Shown piece by piece: positions 7,696 to 56,048 of a stretch of DNA of 64,000 nucleotides. Positions within the stretch are counted from its first letter, which is position 1; every line of letters starts with the position of its first letter. A program made the translations under genes and the position numbers. The notes beneath the pieces were generated by a model. It had not been told where the DNA came from and did not search any database. It saw only the letters and a program-made list of their open reading frames with translations. This stretch comes from Chloroflexota bacterium. GTDB taxonomy: Bacteria > Chloroflexota > Anaerolineae > Promineifilales > Promineifilaceae. The DNA lies in the NCBI GenBank assembly GCA_048620455.1, contig JBMCFH010000002.1:513-64512 (forward strand). Direction: 5' to 3'.

Positions 7696-9342
7696 TTACT
7701 CATCGGTCACATCCAACAGCAGACCCAGTTGCGCCGTGATCTGCTGCAACTCCTGCCATTGCTGTCCGCGCACCACGGCTGCCAGATCACCCAGGCGCTC
7801 CCCAATGTATGGACGCGTCTTCGGGTTAGATTGCAGTGTGTCCAGAATGGACGAGTCGCGCACGCGTAGAATGACCGCGTGCTGCAAGCGACCCTCCAGA
7901 CCTCGTTCCGACCAGCGTTCCACTGCCCGGCGCACACTTGCCGGAATTGGACGACCGCTGGCCTCTTCTAAGAACTCCAACACCCTCTCAGGCCGGATGC
8001 CTGATTCCTGGGCCCGCGACAGGCTATCCGGCGTCAGCCGGTACTGGTAGGGCTCAGACGGGTCCAGCGGCTGCGGCTCTGCGACACGCGCCGCCTGGAA
8101 TCGCTGGTAGCGACTGGCGTTGAAGGGCACCAACAATGACGCATCTGGCTGAACCACCAATGGCACCTGCACATCCGTCCCCTGCAGCGGCGCCCCGTCT
8201 AGCCATTGCAGCGCCGCCTCTGTCAGACGATAGCGCCCATCGCCCACTTCAGTCAGTCCCAGCCAGGCCATCGGTCCGCTGAGCAGAAAGCGCAGCAAGC
8301 GGCCCTCGACGAGATCCCAATTCTCGAAACCACGCACGTAGACGTCCTGTTCCACATCGCGGATGTACCAGGTATCGTAATTACCTTCAGGGCGTTGAAA
8401 ATCAGGGGTTGTTTCTTTTATCAATGCCACCAGGTCGGCGAGTTGATACCAGGAACGATCCCGAGGCAACGCTTCTAGCAACGTCGCCCGTGGGGGAACT
8501 GGCTCGTTGCTCCACCCACTGCCCTCGCAGCGCAACCCTGGTGTGTGGCACAGATCATTCCACGAACTACCGCTCCACGCTTCGGCCAATGATCGCAACT
8601 GTGAGACGCGGTCCTCTTGCAGCCAACCAACAGCCGCCCGCGCGGGACGCAAACTGCCCTCGTGTGCTCGCAACAGCTCCAATTCTTCGGCCAATGTCAG
8701 GAGCAGATCGCTACGCGCCTCATCGCCGGCATACATGTACGGGCGCACAGCAGAGAGTTGCCCGCGCTGCAGGCCATCGCGCTGTGCAAAGGCCAGCAGT
8801 GTCGTCAGGTCATCGACCGCGTGCCCGGTTGCCTCTTCGTACGCCGCGGGTGGTTGCGCCGGATCCAGGGACGAGGCGGCTTCCACGTCCGCATCCGGCG
8901 CGCGTTCCGGCGCCGGGAATTGCTCAAGAAACTCTTTGGGAAGGTAGTAAAACTCCACCAGCCCCCCGTCGTCGCCGGCATTGTCGAAGCCGCGAAAGAG
9001 AAATCCCCGATACCACAGGGCCTCGGCGGGGCTGGCAGGCTCCAACCACGGCTCCTCACGCTCCAGCCGCCCAGGTCCCATCTGGCGCACTTCTCCGTGG
9101 TGGCGACTAAACGCAGCGACCGGCATCCTGCCGCCTTCGCGAACCAGCGCGTGCAGAACAGATGACTCTTCTGGAGGCAGATAGTTCAGTTCAAGCTCGA
9201 AATCCAGCTGCTGCAGCCGCTCGCTCAGCGCCTCAACACACGCCTCCTTGTCCGCTCCTGTCAAATCCAGCTCCCACCACTCACCTATCACGCGCAGGGT
9301 GATTAAATCGTGGTCAGAAAGAGCATTTTCCAGCGTTCGCAT
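7696..9342 (-). CDS. hypothetical protein with C-terminal XPB/Ssl2 N-terminal-like (helicase-associated, damage-recognition-type) domain; no helicase core
   Basis: The C-terminal ~120 aa (YQYRLTPDSLSRAQESGIRPERVLEFLEEASGRPIPASVRRAVERWSERG...ILRVRDSSILDTLQSNPKTRPYIGERLGDLAAVV...ELQQITAQLGLL) follow the pattern I recall for bacterial XPB N-terminal domains. No Walker A/B or DEAH motifs occur anywhere in the protein. GGAGG lies 5 nt upstream of the ATG. Confidence 0.45.
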   Translation of the reverse strand: MRTLENALSDHDLITLRVIGEWWELDLTGADKEACVEALSERLQQLDFELELNYLPPEESSVLHALVREGGRMPVAAFSRHHGEVRQMGPGRLEREEPWLEPASPAEALWYRGFLFRGFDNAGDDGGLVEFYYLPKEFLEQFPAPERAPDADVEAASSLDPAQPPAAYEEATGHAVDDLTTLLAFAQRDGLQRGQLSAVRPYMYAGDEARSDLLLTLAEELELLRAHEGSLRPARAAVGWLQEDRVSQLRSLAEAWSGSSWNDLCHTPGLRCEGSGWSNEPVPPRATLLEALPRDRSWYQLADLVALIKETTPDFQRPEGNYDTWYIRDVEQDVYVRGFENWDLVEGRLLRFLLSGPMAWLGLTEVGDGRYRLTEAALQWLDGAPLQGTDVQVPLVVQPDASLLVPFNASRYQRFQAARVAEPQPLDPSEPYQYRLTPDSLSRAQESGIRPERVLEFLEEASGRPIPASVRRAVERWSERGLEGRLQHAVILRVRDSSILDTLQSNPKTRPYIGERLGDLAAVVRGQQWQELQQITAQLGLLLDVTDE

Positions 9343-9472: not shown

Positions 9473-9501
9473 TTTACACCCCCATCTAAACGTGCTATAC
9501 T
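9473..9501 (+). promoter_or_regulatory. sigma70-type promoter candidate for the 9.5-18.7 kb operon
   Basis: TTTACA (9473-9478), a 17-nt spacer, then TATACT (9496-9501), about 40 nt upstream of the first ORF (ATG 9542). Confidence 0.5.
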
Positions 9502-9541
9502 TTGCCTCGAATAACGTTACGTCAAGTCGCTGTGAAGTGCC

Positions 9542-9811
9542 ATGGTTCCTCCCCAATCGTCGGATGATGTGTTTCTGCATGCGGTTGCCGAAAGCATATC
9601 CAGGCGTGGCCTGGGTTCCCTGGCCCTGGTAACGCTCGAGGCTGGACGTCCACTCGCCTTCCTCGGCGGCCAACTGCTATGGCTGACCCAACCCGCGCTG
9701 TGCCTGCTGTGGTCACGAAATCAGATCAGCCGGCTGGCGCGGCTTCTGGAAGAAGGAGAGACACTGGACAGCCTGATCGAGCACCTGCAAACAAATCAAT
9801 CGTATGAGTGA
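9542..9811 (+). CDS. small hypothetical protein (first gene of operon)
   Basis: This is an 89-aa ORF directly downstream of the promoter candidate. Its stop overlaps the next start (ATGAGTGA). It has one hydrophobic stretch (LAFLGGQLLWLTQPALCLLW). I recognise no family. Confidence 0.45.
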   Translation: MVPPQSSDDVFLHAVAESISRRGLGSLALVTLEAGRPLAFLGGQLLWLTQPALCLLWSRNQISRLARLLEEGETLDSLIEHLQTNQSYE

Positions 9812-10559
9812 AAGTCAGCTACTGGTTATTGCAATCGCACTCCTGGCAGCAGCGCTGATGTTACTGGCCTATCGGCGCCTGCGAGCGGGAGAGACCATTA
9901 TCCTACGGCCTTTGCCAGGGTACAATAAGATACAGCAACAGATCGGACTGGCTATCGAAGGCGGTCGTCGCCCGCATCTGACCCTTGGTCGCGGTCCCTT
10001 ACACACTGTCGCCGGTCCCAGTAGCGTTGCCGCGCTCAAGATTCTGGACGAGTTGGGCGCTGCAGGCGCCAAAAGCGCCATGTCGCCGCGAGTGACCGTG
10101 GGAAGCGGCACCCTACTCCCCGCTGCGGAGGATACGTTGCGCCGGGCCTACGAGGCCGCCGGTCGTGGCGAGACATTGCCGCCGCGAAGTGTGGAGTTTC
10201 TCGCCGAAGACACCTTTCCATTCAGCTATGCCGCCGGTTTCTCCGCGATGCAGAACCAGGATGACAGTGGCAGCAATGTCGCTGCCGGTCGCTTCGGCGA
10301 AGAAGTGATTATCATTAATGAGGCAGTCCAACGGGCCGGGCTGGAACAGGTGACTGCAACCGACGATCCGCTGGCGATGGCTCTGGCAACAGCCGGCAGC
10401 GGAGAGACACTTTGGGGCGAAGAGCTGTTTGCGGCCGGAGCCTATCTGGATCAAACGCCTCTACAGTTGGCCAGCGTGCGCGCTCAGGACATCCTGCGTT
10501 GGCTCCTCGCAGCCACCATCGTGATCATTGCCCTGTTGCAACTGTTGACAATGCTGTAA
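9804..10559 (+). CDS. hypothetical bitopic membrane protein (TM - ~200-aa domain - TM)
   Basis: An N-terminal TM (LLVIAIALLAAALMLLAY) and a C-terminal TM (WLLAATIVIIALLQLL) flank a soluble Ala/Gly-rich domain. The start overlaps the upstream stop. Confidence 0.6.
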   Translation: MSESQLLVIAIALLAAALMLLAYRRLRAGETIILRPLPGYNKIQQQIGLAIEGGRRPHLTLGRGPLHTVAGPSSVAALKILDELGAAGAKSAMSPRVTVGSGTLLPAAEDTLRRAYEAAGRGETLPPRSVEFLAEDTFPFSYAAGFSAMQNQDDSGSNVAAGRFGEEVIIINEAVQRAGLEQVTATDDPLAMALATAGSGETLWGEELFAAGAYLDQTPLQLASVRAQDILRWLLAATIVIIALLQLLTML

Positions 10560-10604
10560 ACGCGAATCCGTTAACCGATTCTACGCAAAGTACCGTAACG
10601 AACC

Positions 10605-11213
10605 ATGAACCTTCTGAAGCGCGGATTGCCGGTGACCCTGGCCCTCATTTTTGGGTTTGCCACCCTTGCCGGCCTTCTGGTTCTTCCACCGCTGGCAGAC
10701 CTGCTCCTCAGCTGGGCCGGATTTCTGGCTGCGGTCGCCCTAGTGCTTGGCGTGTTAAACCTTCTTGCGATCCACCTGCGAAGAGCAGCAAGCGGGAATG
10801 GATATAGCCTGATCCTCGTACTCAGCATGTTGGTCGTGTTCGCCCTGGGAATCACAGATGCCCTGTTACTCACCGAGAATGGCCTTGCGTTCGCTTTCAA
10901 CGAGATTCAGGCGCCGCTTGAAGCAGCTGTGGCTTCGCTCGTAGCTTTCTTTCTCCTTTTCGCCGGCGCACGCATGTTGCAGCACCGTCGCAACGCCTGG
11001 TCGATTCTATTCATGATCTCGGCCATCTTTTTTCTACTCACCCAGGGTCCGCTGCCAGAAGCGCTGGCAGCGATCCTCTCCCCAATCCGCAGAGTAGCCG
11101 ATTCCGTACTGGTAACAGCAGGGATGCGCGGTATATTGCTGGGCGTGGCTCTAGGCATCATCACGCTCAGCCTTCGCCTCCTGTCTGGTCTGGAGCGTCC
11201 TTATAGCTCATGA
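10605..11213 (+). CDS. hypothetical polytopic membrane protein (~6 TM)
   Basis: The 202-aa protein is almost entirely hydrophobic helices. Its stop overlaps the next start (ATGA). Confidence 0.6.
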   Translation: MNLLKRGLPVTLALIFGFATLAGLLVLPPLADLLLSWAGFLAAVALVLGVLNLLAIHLRRAASGNGYSLILVLSMLVVFALGITDALLLTENGLAFAFNEIQAPLEAAVASLVAFFLLFAGARMLQHRRNAWSILFMISAIFFLLTQGPLPEALAAILSPIRRVADSVLVTAGMRGILLGVALGIITLSLRLLSGLERPYSS

Positions 11214-14200
11214 GTGAAATCATCTGTCGCAGCTGCGGAGCCCGCAACCCCACGAAGAGCAAATTTTGTAACAAGTGTGGCGCGGAGTTGCGCAGCGGCA
11301 CCTCGCAAATTTGCCCGAATTGTGAACGGTCTAACCCCATCGAGCTGCTCTACTGCGATCACTGTGGCACGTTGCTCGCCGACGACGCCTTGTTAGATCC
11401 ACCTGAAGAGGAAGCGGACGAAGAGGACGCGCCAGAAAGCAGAAGCAAACCGTTCTCGCTGCCTTCGCGACCGCCGGGTCAGACCGGCAACCTGGACGTG
11501 TCCGGCGATATTCCGGAATGGCTGAGAACCGGCGACGCAGATGAAGAGGCCGGCGGCGACGATGAAGAAACGCCGGATTGGCTGCAAGCGGCACAGGCGT
11601 CGGATGAGTGGGAAGATTCGGAGGCGCCTACGCTTGAGGATCTCAGCGGAAGCCACGCCCCCAGTGATGACTTGCCAACATGGTTGCTGGAAGATGAGGC
11701 AGGCGATGCCATCTTCAACAGCGAAAAAGACACAAATGAGCTATTCCGTCAGGGAAGCGGGAGCGAACAAGCGGACATGGCCGACGATGCGCCCCAGCCG
11801 GAAGCGCAGCTACCGGAGTGGCTGGAGGGACTGAGCCCCCCCGACAGCGGCCCACTCCCCTTTATATCCGATGAAGATGAGTCACCTGACGATGTGCAGG
11901 AATCCACCGAGGAAAATCAAACCGGCGACCCTGCCAGCGAATTGCAGAGCTGGTTGAATGCGATGGAGCAGGACGAGAGCGCCAGCGCAGGGTCGGAACC
12001 GCCGGCCGAAGCATCATCTCAGGAACAGCAGAACGCCGAGGACGTGGAGCCGGACGCCGATTGGCTCCAGGAATTCGATTCAGGCGCCGACGAACAGGCG
12101 CAGACGCAGATGGAGCTGGAGACGCCCGCTGATGCTGACGACGATTTTGCGCGATGGTTGACGGGTGAGGAAATTAGCGAAGGCGCCGCCACCGGAGAAG
12201 GGGAGGAGCCGCCGGTTCAATCGCTCGACGATGAAGACTTCCAACAGTGGCTGGCCGATGCCCGGCTGGAAGAATCGGCTTCCAAAAGCGGTGATGACGA
12301 GATGTGGGATGAGGAAGCCGCACCGGCCGAGGAGCCTGATGCCGACACGCCGGTTTGGATGCAGATGTCCGACGATGAGTTTCTGACTGAGAGCGGCGGT
12401 TCATCGCCGACCGATCCTGACTCCGAGGCTGCGCCTGACTGGCTCGCAGAATTCGAAGAGGAAAGCCTGGGGGAAATCCAGCAACCGTTCGCCGAAGATG
12501 ACGACGACGATTGGTTGGAGCCCCTTGAATCACCTTCTGCCGAGGACGTTCAACAGGCTGACGAAGAAGCAGGCGAGGAGATGACAGAGGAGGACTTTCT
12601 TGCCTGGCTCGCCACGCTTGATGAGGGCGGTCTTGATGCAGAGGAAAGTGCGGAGGATGCTTCGCCGGCTGCTGAAGCCGGCGCGCCTGACGAACTTTCT
12701 CTGCCGGAGGACGAGGCAAGCGAAGCGCAAGAGGTGTTGCCCAGCGAGGAAGATCTGGTACCAGAGGAGCCGCGGGCGCAGGAAGCACCCGCCGAACTGC
12801 CTTCCTGGCTCGGCGAATTGGGCGAGAGCGATCAGACGGTTGCAGAGGCCGATGACGACTTCGCCGGCGATTTGCCCGACTGGCTGCAGTCAACGCTGTC
12901 AGAGAGTGAAGCCGGCCCGCTGCCGTATGTGGAGGCGGAAGGCGAGGCGACGGATGAAATTGAGGACGAAGCGGAAGACTCCCTCGCGGAGCCGGCTATA
13001 GAGGAGGATATAGAAGCTGCAGAAAGCGCAGCGGAAGCCGGCGAAGAAGTTCCTGAGTGGCTGGCTGGTGTTTCGGACGAGTTTGATAGTGAAAGCGCCC
13101 CTTCATTTGCAGGTGATGCACCAGAAGTGCAAGACGAGACGCAACCGTCTGGTGAAGAGCCCCTCGAAGCGCTGCAACCGGCAGAGGATGAAATACAGGA
13201 AGATCTGGACTTTGCCGACGCCTCGCTCGATCCCGATGCATCAGACGATCTGGTGCCTACGGAAGACTTACCGGACTGGTTCAGCGACGTTATGGCCGAT
13301 ATCGAGACGGAGAGCGAGCTCGGCGACCAGGTTGAAGTCCCTGCAGAGCTCTCCAACGTGCCGCCACAATTGGCCGCTGACGATTTGCCTGAGTGGCTGG
13401 ACAGTCCATTTGTAGACAGCCCGGATGCCGAACCGACTCCACTGAACGAAATACCCGAGTGGCTAAAGCCGCCCCCTCGTGCGGGCCGGGAAGACACAGT
13501 TGGAGAAGAGGAACTGCTCAGTCTGGGCGCTCCAGAAAGCAGCGATGAGTGGGCCGACCTTCTGGATGCACTGCCGCCTCCTGAACGCGACAGCGAGAGC
13601 CTCAGCCAGGCGGACATACCAGAATGGCTTCAGGCGCTGAAACCTCAGGCGCTGCGCGAAGATTCAGAAGAAGCTCCCGCGCCGCAGGAACCGGAAGAAA
13701 GCGAAGGGCCACTTGCCGGGTTGCGTGGCGTCATCGGCGTGGCGCCGGCAATGGCGCATCCACGAGCTGCCGAACGGATCGATCCCGATCTATCGGCTCA
13801 GGAACACGAGCAACAGGTAGCATTATTGCGGCAGCTGGCCCGTTCGGAGGGCAGCGCAATCTCCCCTCGCGCACTGCCCTCGGCTACAACGACATCATCA
13901 ACGGCCGTTCGCGTGCTGCTGGCGGTGCTGCTGCTGGTCGCGCTGCTTATCGGCCTGTTCTTCACAGAGACGATCGTCGAACTGGCGCCATGGGCGCCGG
14001 TGAGCACCGCAGCGGACGCAGCGGGCATCATCGATGCCGCCGCCGGCGAACCGGTCATCGTCGCCTTCGAGTACACGCCTGCGTTGGCCGGCGCCCTGAA
14101 CGCTGACGCTCATGCTGTCCTGGCAAAGCTCGCCGACAACAATAGTTCTGCAATATTGGTCAGTCAGACTGCAGCGGGCGCGACACTGGCGCAGCAGGCT

Positions 14201-14677
14201 GCATCAGACACCCCTGACTTGCAGAGCGTGGACGTAGGTTATGTCCCCGGTGGAGCGGCCGGTCTGCGCAGCATGGCCCAATGCATCGCCAATGGTCAAC
14301 CATGCCCTTCGCTATTCGGCCGTCCACTGGCCCAGGATGACAGCGCGGCGCTAAACGATGCTGCGTTAATCGTTGTCCTCAGCGGTGAGCGAACCCGGCT
14401 AATTGACTGGGTGGAGCAAGTGCAAACGACAAGCGGCGTCGCCATGCTGACTTTTGTAACGGAGGCCATCGCGCCTGTGGCTGCGCCCTATGCTGATAGC
14501 CGGCAGCTGACCGTCGTCTCCAGCAGCGGGCATTCGACTTTGGAGGCGGATAGTGAACCGCTGCCACCGCAGACAGCAGCCGTCACGATGGGCCGCGGGC
14601 TGGCAATCGGAATCATCCTAATCGGTGCAATCTATTATCTTGTTGCCGGACAAAGGCGGACGCCAACAAATGAGTGA
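11210..14677 (+). CDS. double zinc-ribbon protein with ~700-aa acidic W-L repeat region and C-terminal TM-domain-TM module
   Basis: The N-terminus carries two CxxC...CxxC ribbons (CRSCGARNPTKSKFCNKCG; CPNCERSNPIELLYCDHCG). A long Asp/Glu/Pro-rich region follows with about 19 [P/x][E/D]WL motifs. Then come a TM helix (AVRVLLAVLLLVALLIGLFF), a ~220-aa domain, and a terminal TM (LAIGIILIGAIYYLVAG). Confidence 0.8.
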   Translation: MSEIICRSCGARNPTKSKFCNKCGAELRSGTSQICPNCERSNPIELLYCDHCGTLLADDALLDPPEEEADEEDAPESRSKPFSLPSRPPGQTGNLDVSGDIPEWLRTGDADEEAGGDDEETPDWLQAAQASDEWEDSEAPTLEDLSGSHAPSDDLPTWLLEDEAGDAIFNSEKDTNELFRQGSGSEQADMADDAPQPEAQLPEWLEGLSPPDSGPLPFISDEDESPDDVQESTEENQTGDPASELQSWLNAMEQDESASAGSEPPAEASSQEQQNAEDVEPDADWLQEFDSGADEQAQTQMELETPADADDDFARWLTGEEISEGAATGEGEEPPVQSLDDEDFQQWLADARLEESASKSGDDEMWDEEAAPAEEPDADTPVWMQMSDDEFLTESGGSSPTDPDSEAAPDWLAEFEEESLGEIQQPFAEDDDDDWLEPLESPSAEDVQQADEEAGEEMTEEDFLAWLATLDEGGLDAEESAEDASPAAEAGAPDELSLPEDEASEAQEVLPSEEDLVPEEPRAQEAPAELPSWLGELGESDQTVAEADDDFAGDLPDWLQSTLSESEAGPLPYVEAEGEATDEIEDEAEDSLAEPAIEEDIEAAESAAEAGEEVPEWLAGVSDEFDSESAPSFAGDAPEVQDETQPSGEEPLEALQPAEDEIQEDLDFADASLDPDASDDLVPTEDLPDWFSDVMADIETESELGDQVEVPAELSNVPPQLAADDLPEWLDSPFVDSPDAEPTPLNEIPEWLKPPPRAGREDTVGEEELLSLGAPESSDEWADLLDALPPPERDSESLSQADIPEWLQALKPQALREDSEEAPAPQEPEESEGPLAGLRGVIGVAPAMAHPRAAERIDPDLSAQEHEQQVALLRQLARSEGSAISPRALPSATTTSSTAVRVLLAVLLLVALLIGLFFTETIVELAPWAPVSTAADAAGIIDAAAGEPVIVAFEYTPALAGALNADAHAVLAKLADNNSSAILVSQTAAGATLAQQAASDTPDLQSVDVGYVPGGAAGLRSMAQCIANGQPCPSLFGRPLAQDDSAALNDAALIVVLSGERTRLIDWVEQVQTTSGVAMLTFVTEAIAPVAAPYADSRQLTVVSSSGHSTLEADSEPLPPQTAAVTMGRGLAIGIILIGAIYYLVAGQRRTPTNE
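11510..13630 (+). repeat. protein-level degenerate repeat array: ~19 copies of acidic-flanked (L/I/T/V)P(E/D)WL motif
   Basis: Read from the translation: IPEWL, TPDWL, LPTWL, LPEWL, QSWL, ADWL, ARWL, QQWL, PVWM, APDWL, DDWL, LAWL, LPSWL, LPDWL, VPEWL, LPDWF, LPEWL, IPEWL, IPEWL. Spacing is irregular (about 20-60 aa), so this is not a DNA-level tandem repeat. Confidence 0.85.
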
Positions 14678-15314
14678 GTTTCCTCTGGTTCTGGTGGGGT
14701 TTTTGTTGACCCTGTTTATCTATAGTTACGTGGTGGGCGACAATCCGCTCTATCGTTTGGCCGTTCATTTGCTGGTGGGAGTAAGCGCGGCCTACGCGGC
14801 GGTGATTGCTATTGAAAGCGTCTTCCTGCCCCTGTTCCAACGCCTTCAGGAACAACCCACAGCGCCGGATAACCTGCTATGGGGAATTCCTCTTCTCCTC
14901 TCGCTGCTCCTCTTGCTGAGGTGGCTGCGCCCGTTGGCCTGGGCTGGCAACAGCACGATCGGCGTACTGATTACGGTGGGCGCAGCCGTGGCCCTGGTAG
15001 GCGCCATTACAGGCACAATCCTCCCCCAGGTTTTAACTATGCCAGATGGTGAGCCGTGGTTGGGACTGGCGACGGCGCTGCTCACGGCCTGTGCCTTGCT
15101 CTATTTCCAGTTCACCGGTCGCGCAGATCGGGAGGGCCAGTTCACACGCCCCGCGTGGAAGCGAGTCATTGCCGCCGTAGGACAGGGAGTCCTCATGGTC
15201 ACCTTTGGCGCGCTATTCGCCGGCGCTTTTAGTACAAGTCTCGTCGTGCTCGTGGAACGCCTTAACCATTTCATTACAGAGCTGGCCTCCGCACTGGGAC
15301 CGTTTCTCTCATGA
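14670..15314 (+). CDS. hypothetical polytopic membrane protein (~6 TM)
   Basis: ATG 14670 overlaps the upstream stop (ATGAGTGA). The track ORF from 14625 would overlap by 53 nt, so the internal start is preferred. The sequence is hydrophobic throughout. Confidence 0.6.
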   Translation: MSEFPLVLVGFLLTLFIYSYVVGDNPLYRLAVHLLVGVSAAYAAVIAIESVFLPLFQRLQEQPTAPDNLLWGIPLLLSLLLLLRWLRPLAWAGNSTIGVLITVGAAVALVGAITGTILPQVLTMPDGEPWLGLATALLTACALLYFQFTGRADREGQFTRPAWKRVIAAVGQGVLMVTFGALFAGAFSTSLVVLVERLNHFITELASALGPFLS

Positions 15315-17047
15315 TTGTCGACAGCTATTTCCCCTCCTTCCTCCTGGCAGACTGCGGCTCGACGACGACCACAGCAGCGCTCTTCGATATTACGGAGACA
15401 GGCTATCGTCTCGTGACCCAGGCGGTGGCGCCAACGACCGCTTCTGCTCCCTGGCGAGATGTGACCGTTGGCATCCAGGCCGCAATTGGAAAGATATCGC
15501 AGATTACGGGCCGCCCCCTGCTGACTGATGACGGCGATCTGATAACTCCCCGGAAGGAAAACGGTATGGGGGTAGATCGCTTCGGGGTCACGGTCAGCGC
15601 TGCGCCGCCTTTGCGCCTGGTAACAGCGGGCCTGCTCGAGGAAGTGAGTCTGGCAAGCGCGCGCCGCGCCGTCCGCACAATTTACGCGCAGGAAATAGAT
15701 AGCTTCAGCCTCAAGGACACCCGGGATGAGGAGGAGCAAATAAAGGCGATGGTCGCAATCGAACCGGACCTGATTTTGCTCACCGGGGGAACCGATGGGG
15801 GCGATACGGCGCAGCTGCGCGAACTGCTGCAAAAGGTGGAACTGAGCGTCAATCTATTCAATGGAGCTGCCAAACCGCAGGTGCTGTACGCGGGCAACAG
15901 CCGGCTGCGGGAACAGGTAACCACGTCCCTGGGTTCACTGACCAACGTACACGTTGCCGATAACGTGCGCCCCACCATCCAATCAGAAGAGCTCGCGGAC
16001 ACGATGCAGGTGCTGGGCGAGCTCTATGAGGATCTAAAAGTGGGCACGCTGCCCGGTATTCATGATCTCGTCGAGTGGAGCCAGTTCCCGGTGCAAACCA
16101 CGGCACGGACCTTTGGTCGCATGATAGAGTATTTTGCCGCACTCTACGAATCGCGCATCGTGGGGTTGGACCTCGGCAGTAACAGCGTCGTCCTGGCGAC
16201 GGCGCATGAGCAGGAGAAACAGATATATATCGATAGTAACGCCGGGATGGGACGACCGTTGGTGAATCTGTTGGACAGCGTTCCTCCGCCAACGCTCCTT
16301 GCCCACCTGCCCTTTTCCCTGACCGAGGAAGCGCTGCGCGATTTCATTCAGGAGAAAGCGCTCTATCCCCAGACCGTCCCCATGACGGAAGAAGAACTAT
16401 ATCTGGAACAGACGCTGGCGCGGCAGGTGATCAGGCATGCTTTCGCGGGCGCGGCACAACAGTGGGGGTGGACTGGCGGTGGACATGCTCAGACGCTTCC
16501 ATTTAGCCTGCTCGTCTTGCGCGGACAGATTCTGGCACGCGCGCCGCGCCCGGGCCAGACGATGCTCATGGCTCTGGACGCGCTCCAGCCCTCAGGCATC
16601 TTCTCCGTCGCCGTCGATCGTTATGGCGTGCTTCCGCTGCTGGGATTACTCGCAACCCAGGAACCGTCAGCCGTCGTCCAGATCCTGGAAGGAGGCGTTC
16701 TCGTAGAGCATGGTTGGGTGATTGCCCCCACGGGCCCGGCGCAGCCTGGGAAAAAAGCACTGCGCATTACAGTGGACTCCGCCGACAAAGGCGAATACCG
16801 CATCGACGCGGAGTTCGGCGAGCTGATTAGTGTACCACTCGATCCAGGCGTTCCGGCCCAACTAACCCTGGAACCGGAACGCCGCATTGACGTGGGATTT
16901 GGCCCAGGACGCAGCAAGAAGATCACCGTGCATGGCGGCGCAGCCGGTCTGGTGGTAGACTGCAGAGGACGGCCATTGCAGCTTCCCGACGAGGAAGCCG
17001 ACCGCCAGTCGATTCTTCGCCAGTGGCAATGGGATATGGGCGGTTAG
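15311..17047 (+). CDS. GlmL/MutL-like actin-fold (ASKHA superfamily) ATPase
   Basis: The N-terminal phosphate-1 motif LLADCGSTTTTAALFD and the LLTGGTDGGD motif match the pattern I know from glutamate mutase L (GlmL/MutL) and EutA-type proteins. The second half starts with another actin-fold motif, IVGLDLGSNSVVLA. The start overlaps the upstream stop (ATGA). Confidence 0.6.
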   Translation: MIVDSYFPSFLLADCGSTTTTAALFDITETGYRLVTQAVAPTTASAPWRDVTVGIQAAIGKISQITGRPLLTDDGDLITPRKENGMGVDRFGVTVSAAPPLRLVTAGLLEEVSLASARRAVRTIYAQEIDSFSLKDTRDEEEQIKAMVAIEPDLILLTGGTDGGDTAQLRELLQKVELSVNLFNGAAKPQVLYAGNSRLREQVTTSLGSLTNVHVADNVRPTIQSEELADTMQVLGELYEDLKVGTLPGIHDLVEWSQFPVQTTARTFGRMIEYFAALYESRIVGLDLGSNSVVLATAHEQEKQIYIDSNAGMGRPLVNLLDSVPPPTLLAHLPFSLTEEALRDFIQEKALYPQTVPMTEEELYLEQTLARQVIRHAFAGAAQQWGWTGGGHAQTLPFSLLVLRGQILARAPRPGQTMLMALDALQPSGIFSVAVDRYGVLPLLGLLATQEPSAVVQILEGGVLVEHGWVIAPTGPAQPGKKALRITVDSADKGEYRIDAEFGELISVPLDPGVPAQLTLEPERRIDVGFGPGRSKKITVHGGAAGLVVDCRGRPLQLPDEEADRQSILRQWQWDMGG

Positions 17048-17055
17048 GGAAAGGA

Positions 17056-18117
17056 ATGATGATCACCCCTAGCGTGACGACGGTAAAACCATTGATAAAA
17101 ATCAGGCGTGATCGGCTACTACCGCGCCCCGGCGAGGTCGTGGTTACACCGGGTCAGGAAGTCAATCCTGTGCAGGTAGTGGCGCGCACGTCGCAGCAGC
17201 GGGGATTTACCATCGTCGATGGAGCTGACATTCTGGGCGTGCCGCCTGATGACGTACCCAACTATCTACTGGTAGAGGAGGGCGCGGCGGTTCAGAAAAA
17301 GAAGCCACTATTGCAGAAGAAAGGCTTGTTTGGTAGCAAATCTTACAGCTCGCCCGTCAACGGTATCCTGTATCAGGTCAGCCACGGACGGCTTATTCTG
17401 CAACAGACATCAGATCTGTTAGAATTGCGTGCTATGATCAGAGGTGTCGTAGCCGGTTATCTGGGTAACAGGGGTGTGGTAATCGAGACACAGGGATCGT
17501 TGGTCCAGGGGGTCTGGGCCTCCGGGCGTGAAGGTTTCGGTACGATTAAGATCGCCACAGAGAGCTACGACGGACCCCTTCTAAAAGAGCACATCGGCGC
17601 AGATGCCCGGGGCGCCGTGCTTGTTGCCGGCTACGTCGACAGACCGGGCGTGCTTGACGCAGCAGAAAGTCATTCGGTCCGTGGCGTTATCGTCGGCAGC
17701 ATTCCCGCCAGTATGCTGCACACGTTGCCAGCTTTACGCTTTCCGATTATTGTTACAGATGGGTTCCGCCAACAACCAATGGCGCCACCGATTTTCCAAT
17801 TACTACAACAGTCGGAGGGTCGAGAAGCGTCCCTGTTTGGTGCGGATACGGGGTCCTGGTCTCGTCCGGAGATCGTCATCCCCCTTCCCGCGTCGGATGC
17901 GCCGCAGCAGGAGGTTCACTCGTTGCAGCCACTTGGCGTTGGCCAGCGTGTTCGTCTGTTGCGAGCACCGCATGCCGGTGTCGTTGGCGAAGTCGTAGAA
18001 GTTTACGATCGTGCTCGTGCCACAGAAACTGGCTTTCACCTTCCGGGCGCCAGTGTAGCTATTAATGAGGAAGAGGTACTCTTCGTCCCTTATCCAAACC
18101 TTGATTTGATCCGTTGA
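17056..18117 (+). CDS. hypothetical soluble protein (possible barrel-sandwich N-terminus and KOW/SH3-like C-terminus)
   Basis: ATG 17056 lies 8 nt after the upstream stop and is preceded by GGGAAAGGA. By eye only, VVVTPGQEVNPVQVVAR...LVEEGAAVQKKKPLL...SPVNGILYQV resembles a lipoyl/HlyD-like hybrid barrel, and GQRVRLLRAPHAGVVGEVVEVYD resembles a KOW-like hairpin. I recognise no family. Confidence 0.55.
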   Translation: MMITPSVTTVKPLIKIRRDRLLPRPGEVVVTPGQEVNPVQVVARTSQQRGFTIVDGADILGVPPDDVPNYLLVEEGAAVQKKKPLLQKKGLFGSKSYSSPVNGILYQVSHGRLILQQTSDLLELRAMIRGVVAGYLGNRGVVIETQGSLVQGVWASGREGFGTIKIATESYDGPLLKEHIGADARGAVLVAGYVDRPGVLDAAESHSVRGVIVGSIPASMLHTLPALRFPIIVTDGFRQQPMAPPIFQLLQQSEGREASLFGADTGSWSRPEIVIPLPASDAPQQEVHSLQPLGVGQRVRLLRAPHAGVVGEVVEVYDRARATETGFHLPGASVAINEEEVLFVPYPNLDLIR

Positions 18118-18143
18118 AAACACGGACCGAACAGGAGGGAACT

Positions 18144-18701
18144 ATGTTTAGACAACGTTCGCACACCCGTCACAGCATGGAGGCCGGCCAGGCATCGCCG
18201 TTTGCGATCCTCCTGGCAGCGCTGCTGGGCATTCTGGTGCTGGCCATTATCTGTACTGGCGGCGTCCTCTTTTTTCGCAACGGCGATCAGGTCGAAGTTA
18301 GCGGAACCAGCACGGCGATTGCCGAGGCTAACGCCACAACACTGGCGCAAAATGCCATGGTGACGCAAACGATTGCAGCTCTGGAAACAGAAGCAGCGCG
18401 CCCTACCAACACTCCCACCAACACACCGGTTCCTCCAACGGAGACGCCAACGGCAACAAACACGCCGGAACCGTCTCCGACGGCGGTGGTAGAGGCGCCG
18501 GAAGCGACGCCGACGCCGAATCTCTTCGGTACGAGCATTTTCGACAACACGCCGACACCCATTGCGGGCGCCGCGGATGATGGAACAGGCACCGGCGGTG
18601 ATACGTTGCCGGACACCGGTATTGGTCTGGGACCGGCCCTGGCTGCAGCACTGGGCCTTCTCTTCCTCCTGGTGGTTGCTCGTCGTCTCCGCACCGGATA
18701 G
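18144..18701 (+). CDS. Thr/Pro-rich surface protein with LPXTG-type sortase sorting signal
   Basis: AGGAGG (18133-18138) lies 5 nt upstream of ATG 18144. There is an N-terminal signal/anchor (FAILLAALLGILVLAIICTGGVLFF) and a PT-rich linker (PTNTPTNTPVPPTETPTATNTPEPSPT). The C-terminus is LPDTG (18606-18620) followed by a hydrophobic helix and RRLRTG. Confidence 0.75.
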   Translation: MFRQRSHTRHSMEAGQASPFAILLAALLGILVLAIICTGGVLFFRNGDQVEVSGTSTAIAEANATTLAQNAMVTQTIAALETEAARPTNTPTNTPVPPTETPTATNTPEPSPTAVVEAPEATPTPNLFGTSIFDNTPTPIAGAADDGTGTGGDTLPDTGIGLGPALAAALGLLFLLVVARRLRTG

Positions 18702-18917
18702 GGTGCAACTCCTGCGGGGCGCAGATATCCTTCCGTCACCTGCTGGCGGTCGATACTTCTGCCCCATCCCCCACCTGGTGGAGAGCCGTCGGGCCGCCTG
18801 ATCAAAGTTCAAGTGCGATCAGGAGTTCGCGCGTTCATCCTCTCCTGAGGGCGCGCCTCAATGGGCATACCTTCCATGGTATTCAGTCGTCGCCTGGCAC
18901 GCAACGACGAGATTGCA

Positions 18918-21248
18918 ATGAACAACACAGCCACTATCTTGTTAGTAGAAGATGACCCGTCCATCCTGGACGGTATGGCCGATCTGCTGCAGATCTCAGA
19001 TCTCGATTATGAGATAAATGTGCTCAAAGCGACGAACGGCGAAGAAGGGCTGCTCAGGATGGAAGATCAGGTGCCAGACCTGATTATTTCCGACATCATG
19101 ATGCCACGTCTGAATGGTTTTGAATTTCTGGCCCGAGTCCGCGAAAATCCCTCCTGGGTTCACATTCCATTTATCTTTTTAACGGCAAAGGGCAAGAGAC
19201 AGGACATCATGGAAGGCCGGCGCAGCGGCGCAGAACTGTATATCACGAAACCGTTCGTCAGCGCCGAGCTGTTGGAACTGGTAAAGAGCCAGCTTGATCG
19301 CACCTTCCAACTGCAGCAGGCTCGTCAACAGAAGCTCGGCGCTCTAAAACGCAACATTCTGCAACTGCTTAATCACGAGTTTCGCACGCCGCTCACCTAC
19401 GTCACCGCCTATTACGATATGTTGGCTGACAGTCTGCTGAGCGTTGAAGATAGCAACAATTTACAGGAATACTTGCGCGGCATTCAGGTCGGTTGTGTAC
19501 GCCTCACCAATCTGGTGCAGGACCTTGTTCGAGTGATGGATATCCGCACCGGAAAAGCCGCCGAGAAGTTTAAACAACAGGCGCGGATGCTCGACGACGT
19601 TGGTGGGCTCTTCCGCCAACGCGGCGAAGCCCATGAGCCTCGCGCCAGGCAGGCCGACGTCGCCGTTGAATACGACATCGCAACGAATCTGGCTCCCGTG
19701 TACGCCGATCCGGCGGGTCTGGCCGATGCCATCGATCGCCTGATTGACAACGCCATCAAATTTACGAAAGCACGACGCGACGGCCCGCAGCGGGTGAGGC
19801 TGTCGGCCAAAATGTACAACGAACAGGTCGTATTATCCGTAGAGGATACTGGAGTGGGCTTTCCCGCTCACGTACAACGACAGCTATTTGACCTGTTTTT
19901 TCAATATAATCGCGAGCGGCTGGAACAACAGGGATCAGGATCCGGCCTGGCCATCGCCAAAGGATTGGTAGCGTTGCATCACGGTCACATTGAGGTGGAA
20001 AGCACAGAAAACAGCGGCAGCCGCTTCAGTATCGTGCTCCCACCCTATCAACAGGCCATCAATCTCGACACCCTGTCGGCCCGACCATCCCGGCAGGCGA
20101 CGGTCCTTATCGTAGAGGATGATCGGCACTTGCTGGAGGGCTTGCGCGAGCTAATGGAAATGGCCGACACACCCTATCAGCTCAAGGTGCTGACTGCGAC
20201 CAACGGTGAGGAAGGACTGGCCGTTTTGGAGCAGCATCAGGCCGATCTGATTATCTCAGACGTGATGATGCCCATGATGGGCGGTTACGAATTTTTGCAG
20301 CGCGTACGCTCTAACTCGGCGTGGTTACAGATCCCTTTCATCTTTCTCACCGCTAAGGGCGAGCGCGAAGATATTCATCGTGGGCGGCGCAGCGGCGCAG
20401 AGGAGTACATCACCAAGCCGTACGACATTGACGAGCTGATGCAATTGACCATCACACAGCTCGACCGCTACTTCCAGCGTCAGGGAGCGATGACACAGAG
20501 CTTCGAGGCGCTGAAGCGTAGCATCCTTGGCATGTTGCAGCCGGACTTCAGAGGCCCTCTTGATTTGGTCACCACCTACTCGGAAAAGCTTTCAACCGAC
20601 CTGGAACAAGTCGAAACCGACGAAGATCTGGCTACGTCACTGGAAGGGATTCAGGACAGCAGCGCTCGACTGACACGCCTCGTGGAAGACTTCATCGCCA
20701 TGGCCGAGTTTAAGACTGGCGAAGCTGAGTCGGCCTTTCGTTTGCGCGCAGCGCCCGTCAAAAACATCAGCATGGTGCTCTACGAAGCAGCGTACGGCGT
20801 TCAATTTGATGCGGAACAAAAAGGGATCGAGTTTCGCTATGATCTGAATCACGATCTACCGGCTGTTGTCTGTGATCGGGAGCGTTTGCTAAACGCACTG
20901 GAACGACTGCTGACCTTTGTTCTCAGCAATTGCGAACCTGATGGTAACACGATTATCCATTTGGCGAGCAGAGGGGCAGATAAGTTCGTCGACCTCCAGA
21001 TTCAGGTATTTAACACACGCTTTCCTCCCGACCGTGCGCAACGAATTGCCCAGTTCTTTGCAGGCGACGATGAGACAATGCTGGATCTTCCAGGAGCGGG
21101 CCCCGGACTGACCGTCATCAAGAATACCGTCGCCCTTCACAACGGAAAGATCCGCTTGCAACAACACAGCGGCGATCAGATAACGGTGAGGCTTCTTTTT
21201 CCCGCGCATCACCCGCAGGCGGTCAAGCAGAGCACGCAGCCAGGCTGA
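18918..21248 (+). CDS. hybrid sensor protein with duplicated architecture REC-HisKA-HATPase-REC-(degenerate HisKA-HATPase)
   Basis: REC1 reads ILLVEDD...LIISDIMMP...FLTAKG. H-box 1 is LNHEFRTPL (His codon at 19374), with N box DNAIKF, G1 EDTGVGF and G2 GSGSGLAIAK. REC2 reads VLIVEDD...LIISDVMMP...FLTAKG. In the second kinase-like module the H-box reads LQPDFRGPL (Pro codon at 20541) and G1 is lost (VFNTRF). The track ORF starts at 18861; ATG 18918 (MNNTATILLVEDD) is the likelier start. Confidence 0.85.
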   Translation: MNNTATILLVEDDPSILDGMADLLQISDLDYEINVLKATNGEEGLLRMEDQVPDLIISDIMMPRLNGFEFLARVRENPSWVHIPFIFLTAKGKRQDIMEGRRSGAELYITKPFVSAELLELVKSQLDRTFQLQQARQQKLGALKRNILQLLNHEFRTPLTYVTAYYDMLADSLLSVEDSNNLQEYLRGIQVGCVRLTNLVQDLVRVMDIRTGKAAEKFKQQARMLDDVGGLFRQRGEAHEPRARQADVAVEYDIATNLAPVYADPAGLADAIDRLIDNAIKFTKARRDGPQRVRLSAKMYNEQVVLSVEDTGVGFPAHVQRQLFDLFFQYNRERLEQQGSGSGLAIAKGLVALHHGHIEVESTENSGSRFSIVLPPYQQAINLDTLSARPSRQATVLIVEDDRHLLEGLRELMEMADTPYQLKVLTATNGEEGLAVLEQHQADLIISDVMMPMMGGYEFLQRVRSNSAWLQIPFIFLTAKGEREDIHRGRRSGAEEYITKPYDIDELMQLTITQLDRYFQRQGAMTQSFEALKRSILGMLQPDFRGPLDLVTTYSEKLSTDLEQVETDEDLATSLEGIQDSSARLTRLVEDFIAMAEFKTGEAESAFRLRAAPVKNISMVLYEAAYGVQFDAEQKGIEFRYDLNHDLPAVVCDRERLLNALERLLTFVLSNCEPDGNTIIHLASRGADKFVDLQIQVFNTRFPPDRAQRIAQFFAGDDETMLDLPGAGPGLTVIKNTVALHNGKIRLQQHSGDQITVRLLFPAHHPQAVKQSTQPG

Positions 21249-21317: not shown

Positions 21318-22052
21318 ATGGCAACCCTGTTAGAAAAAGCTCAGACACTCATTTCGGCCAATCTTCACGCCATGGTGGACAAGGCGCTGGAAGCAAACTC
21401 CGTGGCAGTACTGAAGCAGTACATTCGCGATGCGGAGCAAAACCTGACGGAGCTGGAGCAGGCCGCGGCTACCGTGGGAGGAGAAGTAAAGACTCTCGAA
21501 CGTCGCTACAAGGAATACAAGAACAAAGCCGACCAGCTCGATAGAAACATCGACACACTGCTCATGCAGGGCAAGACAGAACTGGCCCGAGCCGCCCAAA
21601 ATGAGTTGAATAGCACCAGGCGACTCCAGGAGCAGTATCACGAGCAGTGGGTGCGCCAGCAGCGCGAGTACGACGCCCTGCTCAACGCGCGCCTGAAGTT
21701 GCAGGCCAAACTGACCACTATCCGCCAGGAGCAGAAAGAGCTTGAAGCATTGCTGGAGCTCGCCAAGTCGAAGGAAGCAACGGTGCGCGCGATCAAGAGC
21801 CTGGACGATCTGATGGGTGTCGGCGACAGCGACATTGCTCGCCTGGGCGAATCGATCCGTGGTCGCCTGGACCGGGCAACAGCGTACGGCGAAATGTACG
21901 CGGACCGTCTCGATAATCAGATGGACGAGGCTCTGGGCAAAGCAGAAATCGACTTGCAACTGGAGGAGCGCAAGCGCCGTCTCGGGCTGGAAGAGGCGCA
22001 GGCTGCTGAGGACACTGCAGAGGAAACAGGAGCCGAGACGCTGAGTGAGTGA
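21318..22052 (+). CDS. pspA: PspA/IM30 (Vipp1) family protein
   Basis: The N-terminus LLEKAQTLISANLHAMVDKALEANSVAVLKQYIRDAEQNLTELEQAAATV is typical of PspA/IM30. The rest is a continuous coiled coil of about 240 aa. AAGGAGAG lies upstream. Confidence 0.85.
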   Translation: MATLLEKAQTLISANLHAMVDKALEANSVAVLKQYIRDAEQNLTELEQAAATVGGEVKTLERRYKEYKNKADQLDRNIDTLLMQGKTELARAAQNELNSTRRLQEQYHEQWVRQQREYDALLNARLKLQAKLTTIRQEQKELEALLELAKSKEATVRAIKSLDDLMGVGDSDIARLGESIRGRLDRATAYGEMYADRLDNQMDEALGKAEIDLQLEERKRRLGLEEAQAAEDTAEETGAETLSE

Positions 22053-51178: not shown

Positions 51179-51195
51179 GAACGTTTCCTACTTCG

Positions 51196-52752: not shown

Positions 52753-52785
52753 AGAAACTCCGAAACCTGGATCGTGAGTCGAGAC

Positions 52786-55053: not shown

Positions 55054-55084
55054 AGAATGAACCTATTTGGTACTCAGTCGTCGT

Positions 55085-55393
55085 CTAATACTTCAGCGTA
55101 TCCAGTTCCTCGGCGATGACTGAGTCTCGCTGACGATAGATAGAAATGATCAGAGCCAATCCCACAGCCGCCTCAGCCGCAGCGAGAGCCAGGACAAAGA
55201 TGGCCCAGGCCAGGCCAATCGGCTGATCGGGGGTGCGGTAACGCCAGAAGGCGATGAGATTGATGTTCACAGAATTTAGCATCAGCTCTACAGCCATCAA
55301 TATGGCTACGGCGTTGCGCCGCGCCAGTACGCCGTAAAGGCCAATACAAAAGAGAGCAGCAGAAACTATCAGATACCAGGATAAAGGAATCAT
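55085..55393 (-). CDS. nuoK: NADH:quinone oxidoreductase subunit K
   Basis: The 102-aa protein has 3 TM helices and reads GLYGVLARRNAVAILMAVELMLNSVNINLIAF. Confidence 0.9.
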   Translation of the reverse strand: MIPLSWYLIVSAALFCIGLYGVLARRNAVAILMAVELMLNSVNINLIAFWRYRTPDQPIGLAWAIFVLALAAAEAAVGLALIISIYRQRDSVIAEELDTLKY

Positions 55394-55929: not shown

Positions 55930-56048
55930 TTCTCCAAATCAGCATTCAGCTACCAATTGCCATCAGGCGGCAACTGGCCTGAACACCGTCGCAAAGCAAA
56001 TTATTGACCCTTATGCCAGAGACTCACACACTACCGGCCGCAGCAACC

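Follow-up and report, generated by a model that had tools for sequence, protein, structure and literature searches.

GlmL is an accessory protein encoded between the genes for both subunits of the clostridial glutamate mutase, and it carries the motif set of the acetate and sugar kinase/Hsc70/actin (ASKHA) fold (DxGxT, GGTDGG, and DxG) together with the Pfam domain PF13941. DdrA/GdrA and EutA are likewise ASKHA ATPases, which use ATP to open a partner protein. A 64,000-nucleotide (nt) stretch of DNA from a Chloroflexota bacterium (assembly GCA_048620455.1, contig JBMCFH010000002.1, positions 513 to 64,512), called the window below, contains an operon of eight genes, g1 to g8, in which the product of g6 has the same domain and motif set as GlmL. 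Seven of the eight genes recur together in very distant bacterial phyla, and most of their products are predicted membrane proteins.

A conserved operon in Chloroflexota and other phyla

The genes, with the three parts of the g4 product listed separately, are the following (aa, amino acids; TM, transmembrane; ORF, open reading frame; HMM, hidden Markov model).

9542 to 9811, + strand: g1, small protein of 89 aa with a moderately hydrophobic central stretch (ORF and gene call; member of the cross-phylum core)
9804 to 10559, + strand: g2, DUF6754 protein predicted to have an N-out TM segment, a cytoplasmic domain of ~200 aa, and a C-terminal TM segment (PF20539)
10605 to 11213, + strand: g3, 202-aa protein with six predicted TM segments, core member (topology prediction and family HMM)
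11210 to 11389, + strand: g4 N terminus (aa 1 to 60), double zinc ribbon, predicted cytoplasmic (DZR match and CxxC pairs)
11390 to 13849, + strand: g4 arm (aa 61 to 880, 820 aa), acidic, probably disordered (composition and motif logo)
13907 to 14632, + strand: g4C, C-terminal module of g4 (aa 900 to 1141), with a predicted TM segment, extracytoplasmic domain of ~200 aa, and TM segment (topology and cross-phylum HMM)
14670 to 15314, + strand: g5, 214-aa protein with six predicted TM segments, core member (gene call and family HMM)
15311 to 17047, + strand: g6, 578-aa ASKHA-fold ATPase of the Pfam MutL (GlmL/hydantoinase-A) branch (PF13941, predicted fold, and motifs)
17056 to 18117, + strand: g7, 353-aa soluble, predicted cytoplasmic partner of g6 (AlphaFold model and fusion with g6 elsewhere)
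18144 to 18701, + strand: g8, 185-aa Thr/Ala/Pro-rich LPDTG protein (topology, motif, and family conservation)

A preliminary description of this DNA, made from the letters alone, had reported eight same-strand ORFs with overlapping junctions. The ORF listing places them at the same coordinates (9542 to 18701), and they agree exactly with the gene calls of a public Chloroflexota metagenome-assembled genome (MAG) (GCA_048623735.1, contig JBMCYC010000002.1), which give product lengths of 89, 251, 202, 1155, 214, 578, 353, and 185 aa for g1 to g8. Direct reading of the junctions showed 8-nt overlaps at g1/g2 and g4/g5, with the sequence ATGAGTGA, and 4-nt ATGA overlaps at g3/g4 and g5/g6. The spacings are 45 nt between g2 and g3, 8 nt between g6 and g7, and 26 nt between g7 and g8; the last two contain Shine-Dalgarno-like purine runs (GGAAAGGA and AGGAGG, respectively). 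The eight genes are a real operon, and the overlaps suggest that g1 to g8 are read as a single transcript. The grouping goes far beyond chance: dozens of species-level genomes keep the gene order, and other phyla have the core as well.

With an alignment of g6, we scanned one genome per species of the Genome Taxonomy Database, which yielded at least 559 confirmed relatives. All of the 80 best come from Chloroflexota MAGs, labeled Ardenticatenaceae, Promineifilaceae, Anaerolineaceae, Thermoflexia, and similar. Essentially every Chloroflexota locus with enough flanking sequence (~80 genomes, compared by tblastn and ORF clustering) keeps the order and strand of g2 to g7, and this synteny holds down to 34% identity of g6. 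By ORF clustering, g6 was recovered in 81 loci, g7 in 73, g4 in 72, g5 in 71, g8 in 58, g2 and g3 in 55 each, and g1 in 41, with g1 and g8 recovered as families at fixed positions. The set g6-g7-g8 stands apart from g1-g5 in two Thermoflexales loci (L059 and L069). One Chloroflexota locus, L067, seemed to encode a 940-aa g6-g7 fusion. This candidate was rejected as a frameshift in an A run (caaaaaatgg, L067:11680-11760), the true frame ending in ...QKWLWTLGG* just ahead of the g7 start, and it serves as a warning against inferring fusions from such assemblies.

Beyond Chloroflexota, we compared g6 with 1.84 billion cluster representatives by phmmer and obtained 567 matches at E ≤ 1e-30; the best 150 of the 567 span the whole protein with its C-terminal domain, at identities as low as 29%. 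The 995-aa protein P0333 consists of g6 followed by a complete g7, which aligned end to end (E = 6e-27). Searching with P0333 found about 45 sequence clusters of g6-g7 fusions of 990 to 1020 aa, one of them with 223 member sequences; by NCBI name, the fusion records include two from Candidatus Neomarinimicrobiota and one from Planctomycetota. The Marinimicrobia-type fusions are in frame and independent of the L067 case. Unfused forms of ~600 aa from Planctomycetota, Marinimicrobia, and Deltaproteobacteria are 70 to 73% identical to the g6 part of P0333.

We then compared the genomic contexts of five g6 relatives (L084, L085, L086, L088/L089, and L090). The seven-gene core is present in the Planctomycete locus L084, in the Marinimicrobia-type loci L085, L088, and L089, and in L086 and L090. 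HMMs built from the Chloroflexota families identify every member of it there, with E values from 1e-16 to 1e-163, as follows.

g1: E = 1e-16 to 1e-20
g2: E ~ 1e-45
g3: E ~ 1e-42
g4C (only the TM-domain-TM part of g4): E ~ 1e-36
g5: E ~ 1e-37
g6: E ~ 1e-158
g7: E ~ 1e-86

The order in these loci is "x," g1, g6, g7 (separate or fused to g6), the DUF6754 protein, and proteins of 232 aa (635 aa in L086), 284 to 321 aa, and 216 to 335 aa. Here g1 sits directly before g6, and "x," which precedes g1, is a small PH-domain-like membrane protein with no homologue in the window or in 82 Chloroflexota loci. The window proteins share 23 to 32% identity with those of the Planctomycete, and the Planctomycete and Marinimicrobia-type sets share 55 to 79% with each other. 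A further locus, L091, has only g1 and a g6-g7 fusion together. The partial loci L091, L059, and L069 divide the core into two sub-blocks, a soluble one (g1, g6, and g7) and a membrane one (g2, g3, g4C, and g5), each of which keeps its own internal order. The zinc ribbon and acidic arm of g4 were seen only in Chloroflexota and are absent from the stand-alone 284- to 321-aa g4C orthologues of other phyla, and no counterpart of g8 was detected in the loci from those phyla.

The grouping of the preliminary description is borne out by these comparisons, since homologues are strongly syntenic in Chloroflexota and in other phyla. Its eight-gene set co-occurs as such within Chloroflexota; across phyla, the core is seven genes, with the zinc ribbon/acidic arm and g8 as lineage-specific additions of Chloroflexota. 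Because the seven genes co-occur in very distant bacterial phyla, we read the operon as encoding a multi-subunit machine of the cytoplasmic membrane driven by the ASKHA-fold ATPase g6, a reading in which our confidence and our doubt are about balanced. Three proteins tie this ATPase clade to membranes as single-chain, membrane-tethered forms. In P0339 and P0382, the g6-like part comes after a signal peptide, a large extracytoplasmic domain (with TSP3 repeats in P0339 and Peptidase_M1 in P0382), and a TM segment, and in P0360 it comes after nothing more than an N-terminal TM segment.

The soluble subunits and the name glutamate mutase L

The family assignment of g6 is clear at the level of the domain: it matches Pfam PF13941 (MutL, in the Actin_ATPase clan) with 216.3 bits (E = 9e-64; gathering score, 27) over model positions 2 to 447 and thus passes the Pfam membership test over the full 450-position model. 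It contains the three motifs ADCGSTTTT (aa 13), TGGTDGGD (aa 158), and GLDLGSNS (aa 285), and the AlphaFold model has the ASKHA fold (predicted local distance difference test score [pLDDT], 91.8), so that the GlmL/MutL-type motifs and fold named in the preliminary description stand. In the model and the alignment, the C terminus adds a beta domain (aa 465 to 560) and then a conserved terminal helix with W572. Of 82 sequences, 80 have D or E at position 14 and the remaining two have a gap there; G16, T20, G159, G160, D/E162, D/E287, and G289 are kept in 79 to 82 of the 82, W572 is also conserved in the family, and most of the conserved motif residues are invariant in five added orthologues from other phyla as well. 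With acidic-x-G-x-T, GGTDGG, and D-x-G all in place, g6 is predicted to be an active ASKHA ATPase.

The PF13941 match and the automatic names on public records, "glutamate mutase L" and "methylaspartate mutase," would make g6 a genuine GlmL/MutL-type protein that assists or reactivates a B12-dependent mutase. The curated models do not bear this out. Against the GlmL equivalog NF040745, g6 scores 86.8 bits (cutoff, 475) and aligns over aa 11 to 239 only; against NF040744 (Or-4, GlmL-related, of ornithine degradation) it scores 74.4 bits (cutoff, 600), and against TIGR01319 (glmL_fam) 55.1 bits (cutoff, 204). The Planctomycete orthologue also stays below all three cutoffs, with 231, 203.5, and 172.2 bits, respectively. 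The extra C-terminal beta domain, of ~115 aa, reaches past the GlmL-type models, which have 448 to 459 positions. Gene context speaks the same language: as the preliminary description had noted for mutase, lyase, and cobalamin genes, the public record shows no B12-binding, mutase, or lyase gene up to ~10 kb from g6 in the window, L084 to L086 and L088 to L090 have no B12-binding or mutase family over that distance, and none recurs among the conserved neighbors in 80 Chloroflexota loci. The constant partners of g6 are instead g7 and membrane proteins. Scores and gene context together largely refute the reactivase reading, to which we leave the very slightest probability, and the public name is probably wrong in this context.

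The predicted structure points to several other ASKHA proteins at once. Foldseek matches of g6 include the beta subunits of acetophenone and acetone carboxylases, Hsp70, FtsA, PilM, and the diol dehydratase reactivase DdrA, with 8 to 12% identity and template modeling scores (TM-scores) of 0.17 to 0.46, a likeness at the level of the fold only. PDB sequence searches with g6 gave nothing significant. Neither Hydantoinase_A nor Hydant_A_N was reported for g6 by the Pfam scan; among its relatives, Hydantoinase_A scores range from 15.7 to 24.8 bits (cutoff, 22.9), mostly without a separately significant stretch.

The partner g7, like g6, has no hydrophobic segments by topology prediction. Its model (pLDDT, 87.7) shows a beta-rich N-terminal domain, an alpha/beta middle domain, and a KOW/SH3-like barrel, and it has partial Foldseek matches to RraA, AF_0055 (UPF0107), and ribosomal protein uL24, of which RraA and AF_0055 resemble the middle domain. 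Profile searches gave a weak KOW match, and weak KOW/uL24 matches among PDB sequences. The family alignment contains almost no invariant residues of catalytic type, and tblastn of g7 against the PLSDB plasmids found no match. The third soluble-block member, g1, matches no family in Pfam or NCBIfam; in an alignment that includes the other phyla, L32, P37, Q44, P51, and L69 are invariant. Two ideas about the soluble block were dropped. The conserved C-terminal Trp helix of g6 was considered as a membrane-targeting helix, and it is internal in the natural g6-g7 fusions. A biotin/lipoyl carrier role for g7 was rejected on a hairpin-tip lysine that is present in only 29 of 84 sequences.

These structural matches raise the alternative of a membrane-associated ATP-dependent enzyme, similar to hydantoinase, oxoprolinase, or acetone carboxylase, in which g6 would activate a small substrate, g7 and DUF6754 would complete the active site, with substrate uptake or ion coupling as the task of the membrane subunits. 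The best Foldseek matches, to acetophenone and acetone carboxylase beta subunits (5svc_B, 5m45_B, and 5l9w), extend over nearly the whole of g6 (E = 3e-10 to 1e-9; 625 to 670 aligned columns), although the TM-scores are only 0.25 to 0.38 and the identity 9 to 12%. Weak Hydantoinase_A matches among the relatives, weak Biotin_lipoyl and RnfC_N sequence matches at the g7 N terminus in the Planctomycete orthologue (Biotin_lipoyl, 19.7 bits; cutoff, 22.1), and the RraA- and AF_0055-like middle domain agree with it; five invariant acidic residues of g2 (E52, E167, E206, E207, and D229) could bind metal, and the 79% g6 identity between one Planctomycete and one Marinimicrobia-type locus fits a strongly constrained enzyme. 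On the other hand, the clusters have no HyuB or alpha-type catalytic subunit and surround g6 with membrane proteins, no metabolic gene is a consistent neighbor, the tip lysine of g7 is not conserved, and g7 nearly lacks invariant residues of catalytic type. We consider an enzyme of this kind unlikely.

The membrane block

The g2 product matches DUF6754 (PF20539), in Pfam a family without known function, with 121.7 bits (E = 4e-35; gathering score, 27), and the Planctomycete orthologue does so with 413 bits. TM segments are predicted at aa 4 to 22 and 227 to 245, with RRLR behind the first. In orthologues from diderm bacteria, DUF6754 is preceded by a signal peptide, a further N-terminal domain, and then a TM segment with basic residues behind it. 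Both arrangements place the DUF6754 domain, by prediction, in the cytoplasm. The preliminary description had taken all partners of g6 for envelope proteins; the membrane and surface context holds, but for g2 the soluble part is predicted to lie on the cytoplasmic side and not in the envelope. Across phyla, R35, E52, E167, G205-E206-E207, and Q228-D229 of g2 are invariant, and a g2 profile found no relative among PDB sequences.

For g3, the positive-inside rule predicts an N-in orientation; N52 and H57 (in the second TM segment), R175, and R198 are invariant across phyla, as are T14, S19, D24, Y42, Q120, F146, F148, and R197 in g5. No consistent Pfam family was found for g3 and none for g5, and neither has an NCBIfam match. 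The invariant charged and polar residues of g2, g3, and g5 lie in or beside TM segments. Internal paralogy was considered and not found by hhalign between g2 and the g4 C terminus, between g3 and g5, or between g1 and either g3 or g5.

The longest product, g4, begins with four CxxC pairs (aa 6, 20, 35, and 49), which form a double zinc ribbon that passes the DZR membership test (PF12773, 36.4 bits; cutoff, 27.3; Zn_Ribbon_1, 35.4 bits). The zinc ribbon is kept in most g4 homologues and all four CxxC pairs in most close ones. The following arm is 31% D+E and has 22 Trp sites, the majority in [DE][LIV]P[DE]WL motifs, and the strict motif is found in no ORF of the window besides g4. Homologues have 4 to 28 sites of this Trp-Leu type each, and 1012 sites from 63 of them yield the logo [DE][LIV]P[DE]WLx[DE]L. 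In g4C, TM segments are predicted at aa 900 to 918 and 1123 to 1141. The zinc ribbon and arm, on the cytoplasmic side, precede the first, and a positive tail comes after the second, which puts the ~200-aa domain between them outside the membrane. This domain shows an alternating hydrophobic/polar pattern; P102, W212, Y239, and Q244 (numbered within the 300-aa fragment analyzed) are invariant, and it has no Pfam or NCBIfam family and no PDB sequence match. Taken together, the PDB profile searches with g2, g4C, g6, and g7 gave, besides the weak KOW/uL24 matches of g7, a single weak lysozyme match, which we take as chance. As a separate observation, L085 encodes a 159-aa membrane protein with a C-terminal DZR two genes downstream of the cluster (L085:18701-19180), which might be a free-standing counterpart of the g4 zinc ribbon or a coincidence.

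An acidic, repetitive partner of an actin-fold protein recalls MamJ with MamK, and small polytopic and bitopic membrane proteins are likewise found with MreB (MreC, MreD, and RodZ). By this analogy, the operon would encode a membrane-anchored actin-like cytoskeleton or positioning system in which g6 polymerizes, the g4 arm is the adaptor, and growth, septation, or filament architecture is organized. FtsA and PilM share with g6 the ASKHA fold (TM-scores of 0.41 to 0.46 when normalized to the target) and, like it, are cytoplasmic ATP-binding proteins whose genes accompany those of membrane partners. In close relatives, a RodZ-like gene and PspA are found downstream at a distance of a few genes, and the cluster is carried by filament-forming lineages. 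Yet no sequence or family kinship to the MamK/MamJ and MreB systems was detected: g6 matches no MreB, FtsA, ParM, or PilM family in Pfam and no actin-like filament-former family (MreB, FtsA, ParM, or MamK) in Pfam or NCBIfam at E ≤ 0.1, and it belongs to the MutL/hydantoinase-A branch, whose characterized members are enzymes or chaperone-like factors and are not known to form filaments. Its best Foldseek E values go to carboxylase beta subunits and Hsp70. The cluster also contains no pilin, secretin, FtsZ, or other divisome gene; no PilN-type INLLP peptide ([IVL]NL[LI]P) occurs in g1 to g8, and no pilin, secretin, PilO, or PilP family was found in the locus. The lineage-specific acidic arm is missing outside Chloroflexota, and the cluster occurs in lineages known as non-filamentous, such as Marinimicrobia and Planctomycetes. 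A cytoskeletal role is in our view improbable, to the same degree as the enzyme considered above.

The LPDTG protein g8

The g8 product has an N-terminal TM segment (aa 20 to 38), a Thr/Ala/Pro-rich stalk, LPDTG at aa 155 (18606 to 18620), a second TM segment (aa 160 to 178), and an RRLRTG tail. With an LPXTG motif, hydrophobic segment, basic tail, and N-terminal export signal, it is predicted to be a sortase substrate; a difference from typical substrates is its long N-terminal hydrophobic segment, which resembles an uncleaved anchor. The family is kept at its fixed position in 58 Chloroflexota loci. An exact LPxTG is present in 41 of 62 downstream ORFs and a near variant in most others, and nearly all end with a TM segment and RRLR, so that the family form of the sorting signal is (L/V/M)PxTG, TM segment, and RRLR. 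No ORF with a sortase-like TLxTC was found in the window.

Transcription signals and neighboring genes

One candidate promoter precedes the operon.

9473 to 9501, + strand: candidate sigma-70-type promoter TTTACA-17-TATACT (10 of 12 matches, with TG ahead of the -10 box)

It lies in the 199-nt gap 5' of g1 and is the sole + strand site upstream of g1. The site named in the preliminary description is therefore present, but in the scanned 10 kb we counted 4 promoter-like sites where shuffled sequence gave an expectation of 3.1, a match no better than shuffles that is by itself no proof and leaves the site a candidate only. Downstream of 18701, no terminator-like + strand site was found before the next gene, which encodes a hybrid kinase and into which the transcript may run on.

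This gene (18861 to 21248) encodes a hybrid protein with a response regulator, HisKA, HATPase, and a second response regulator and is syntenic after g8 in 44 loci. A PspA/IM30 gene (21318 to 22052) follows it and is syntenic in 27 loci, and in 19 more distant Anaerolineae loci a regulator with AAA_16 and Trans_reg_C replaces the hybrid kinase. Upstream, and divergent, is a gene for a 548-aa protein with a Helicase_C_3 domain and no helicase core (7696 to 9342, - strand), conserved there in Ardenticatenales-type relatives only; Helicase_C_3 is a C-terminal domain found with XPB-type helicases. We did not count the Helicase_C_3 gene, or the downstream genes for the response regulator-histidine kinase, PspA, L9, and RodZ-like and MiaB-like proteins, as parts of the system, as they are syntenic only in close relatives.

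These neighbors would suit an envelope stress or signaling module that senses the state of the membrane or wall and reports to adjacent regulators. Hybrid response regulator/histidine kinases, AAA_16/Trans_reg_C regulators, and PspA follow in the loci just counted, and L085 and L090 have an upstream gene for a GGDEF response regulator or a guanylate cyclase. However, the type of regulator varies by lineage and none stands beside the cluster in L084, L086, and L088, and seven conserved structural genes are far more than the known sensors need. We rate a signaling module as a poor prospect, below the enzyme and the cytoskeleton.

Comparison with known systems and a proposed machine

Searches of Pfam, NCBIfam, PHROGs, PADLOC, and PDB sequence profiles, and Foldseek with the predicted structures of g6 and g7, placed no subunit in a characterized machine. 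PHROGs and PADLOC gave no meaningful match, which indicates neither a phage nor a defense system. Only the MutL domain of g6, the zinc ribbon of g4, the DUF of g2, and the sorting signal of g8 pass any family test, and GlmL, Or-4, HyuA/HyuB, FtsA/MreB/ParM, PilM-PilN, and biotin/lipoyl carriers each fail at least one of the defining features tested. The literature searched makes no mention of DUF6754, PF13941, or TIGR01319 and does not describe such a cluster. By these comparisons, the system matches no known kind, with remote kinship possible for g1 to g5, whose folds were compared by sequence only. The preliminary description had called the set an uncharacterized ATPase-coupled envelope module, and the synteny, the sub-cutoff GlmL scores, and the lack of a match to a characterized machine all agree with this.

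A possible working principle for g6 comes from DdrA/GdrA (2d0o and 1nbw) and EutA. The Foldseek E values of these ATPases with g6 are ~1e-6 at TM-scores of ~0.3; the g6 locus differs from theirs in having no DdrB-type subunit and no B12 enzyme. In the machine that we propose, g6 would bind and hydrolyze ATP, and g7, encoded adjacent to it or fused with it, would be its obligate partner. The membrane block would consist of g2, whose acidic, conserved DUF6754 domain is predicted to be cytoplasmic, the six-TM proteins g3 and g5, and g4C, with its domain outside. ATP-driven movements of g6/g7 at the cytoplasmic face may pass through DUF6754 and the six-TM proteins to the external g4 domain, with the result that a component of the membrane or envelope would be moved or assembled; a lipid or lipid-linked molecule is our first guess. 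The zinc ribbon and acidic Trp-motif arm of Chloroflexota, with about 10 to 28 [DE][LIV]P[DE]WL motifs, could form a multivalent docking platform, and g8 could tether the complex between the membrane and the cell wall.

Lipid genes near some clusters give a weak hint of a lipid-related role. The phosphatidate cytidylyltransferase gene cdsA (CTP_transf_1) overlaps "x" by 4 nt in three Marinimicrobia-type loci (L085:8332-9612 and L088/L089:8349-9634), a DAGK_cat/YegS-type lipid kinase is encoded near the cluster in 15 Ardenticatenales loci and in L085, and PlsX is found near it in L059 and L085.

Several points weigh against the proposed machine. The lipid-gene neighbors are few and lineage-bound and could be coincidence, and the gene data give no indication of a cargo. 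Known transport motors include the ABC, P-type, AAA+, and SecA types, and to our knowledge no ASKHA ATPase powers a transporter or translocase. The best structural neighbors of g6 are enzyme subunits, the beta subunits of acetone and acetophenone carboxylases, which a metabolic enzyme would fit equally. Finally, the predicted folds cover g6 and g7; g1, g2, g3, g4C, and g5 were compared by sequence and may be remotely related in fold to a known machine. The stronger form of the proposal, in which the seven-gene core would be an unrecognized class of inner-membrane machine and the first ASKHA-powered transporter or translocase, wired in Chloroflexota to the wall and to a Trp-motif scaffold, is accordingly put forward as tentative and rather doubtful.

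Other features of the window

Elsewhere in the window, a complex I (nuo) run on the - strand (48021 to 57299) includes four Proton_antipo_M subunits (507, 544, 518, and 755 aa) and NuoH and coincides with a strong positive AT skew (0.22 to 0.29) on the + strand. A 925-aa ORF (59766 to 62543) has transaldolase (TAL_FSA) and phosphoglucose isomerase (PGI) domains and looks like a bifunctional fusion. A 478-aa ORF (34534 to 35970, - strand) has a sub-threshold match to CHU_C, a type IX secretion signal (26 bits; cutoff, 27), which is unexpected in Chloroflexota and probably a chance or distant match.

Implications

Seven genes are inherited together in at least hundreds of Chloroflexota species and in abundant environmental bacteria, and none of their products is a characterized subunit or has a solved structure. 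The name "glutamate mutase L" given to g6 suggests amino acid fermentation, and its correction would affect metabolic reconstructions of these lineages. Structural work could start at once from the natural g6-g7 fusions or from the compact versions of Planctomycetes and Marinimicrobia, and the Planctomycetes include genetically tractable species. If the operon does encode an ASKHA-powered membrane machine, it would bring a new type of motor into bacterial envelope biology.

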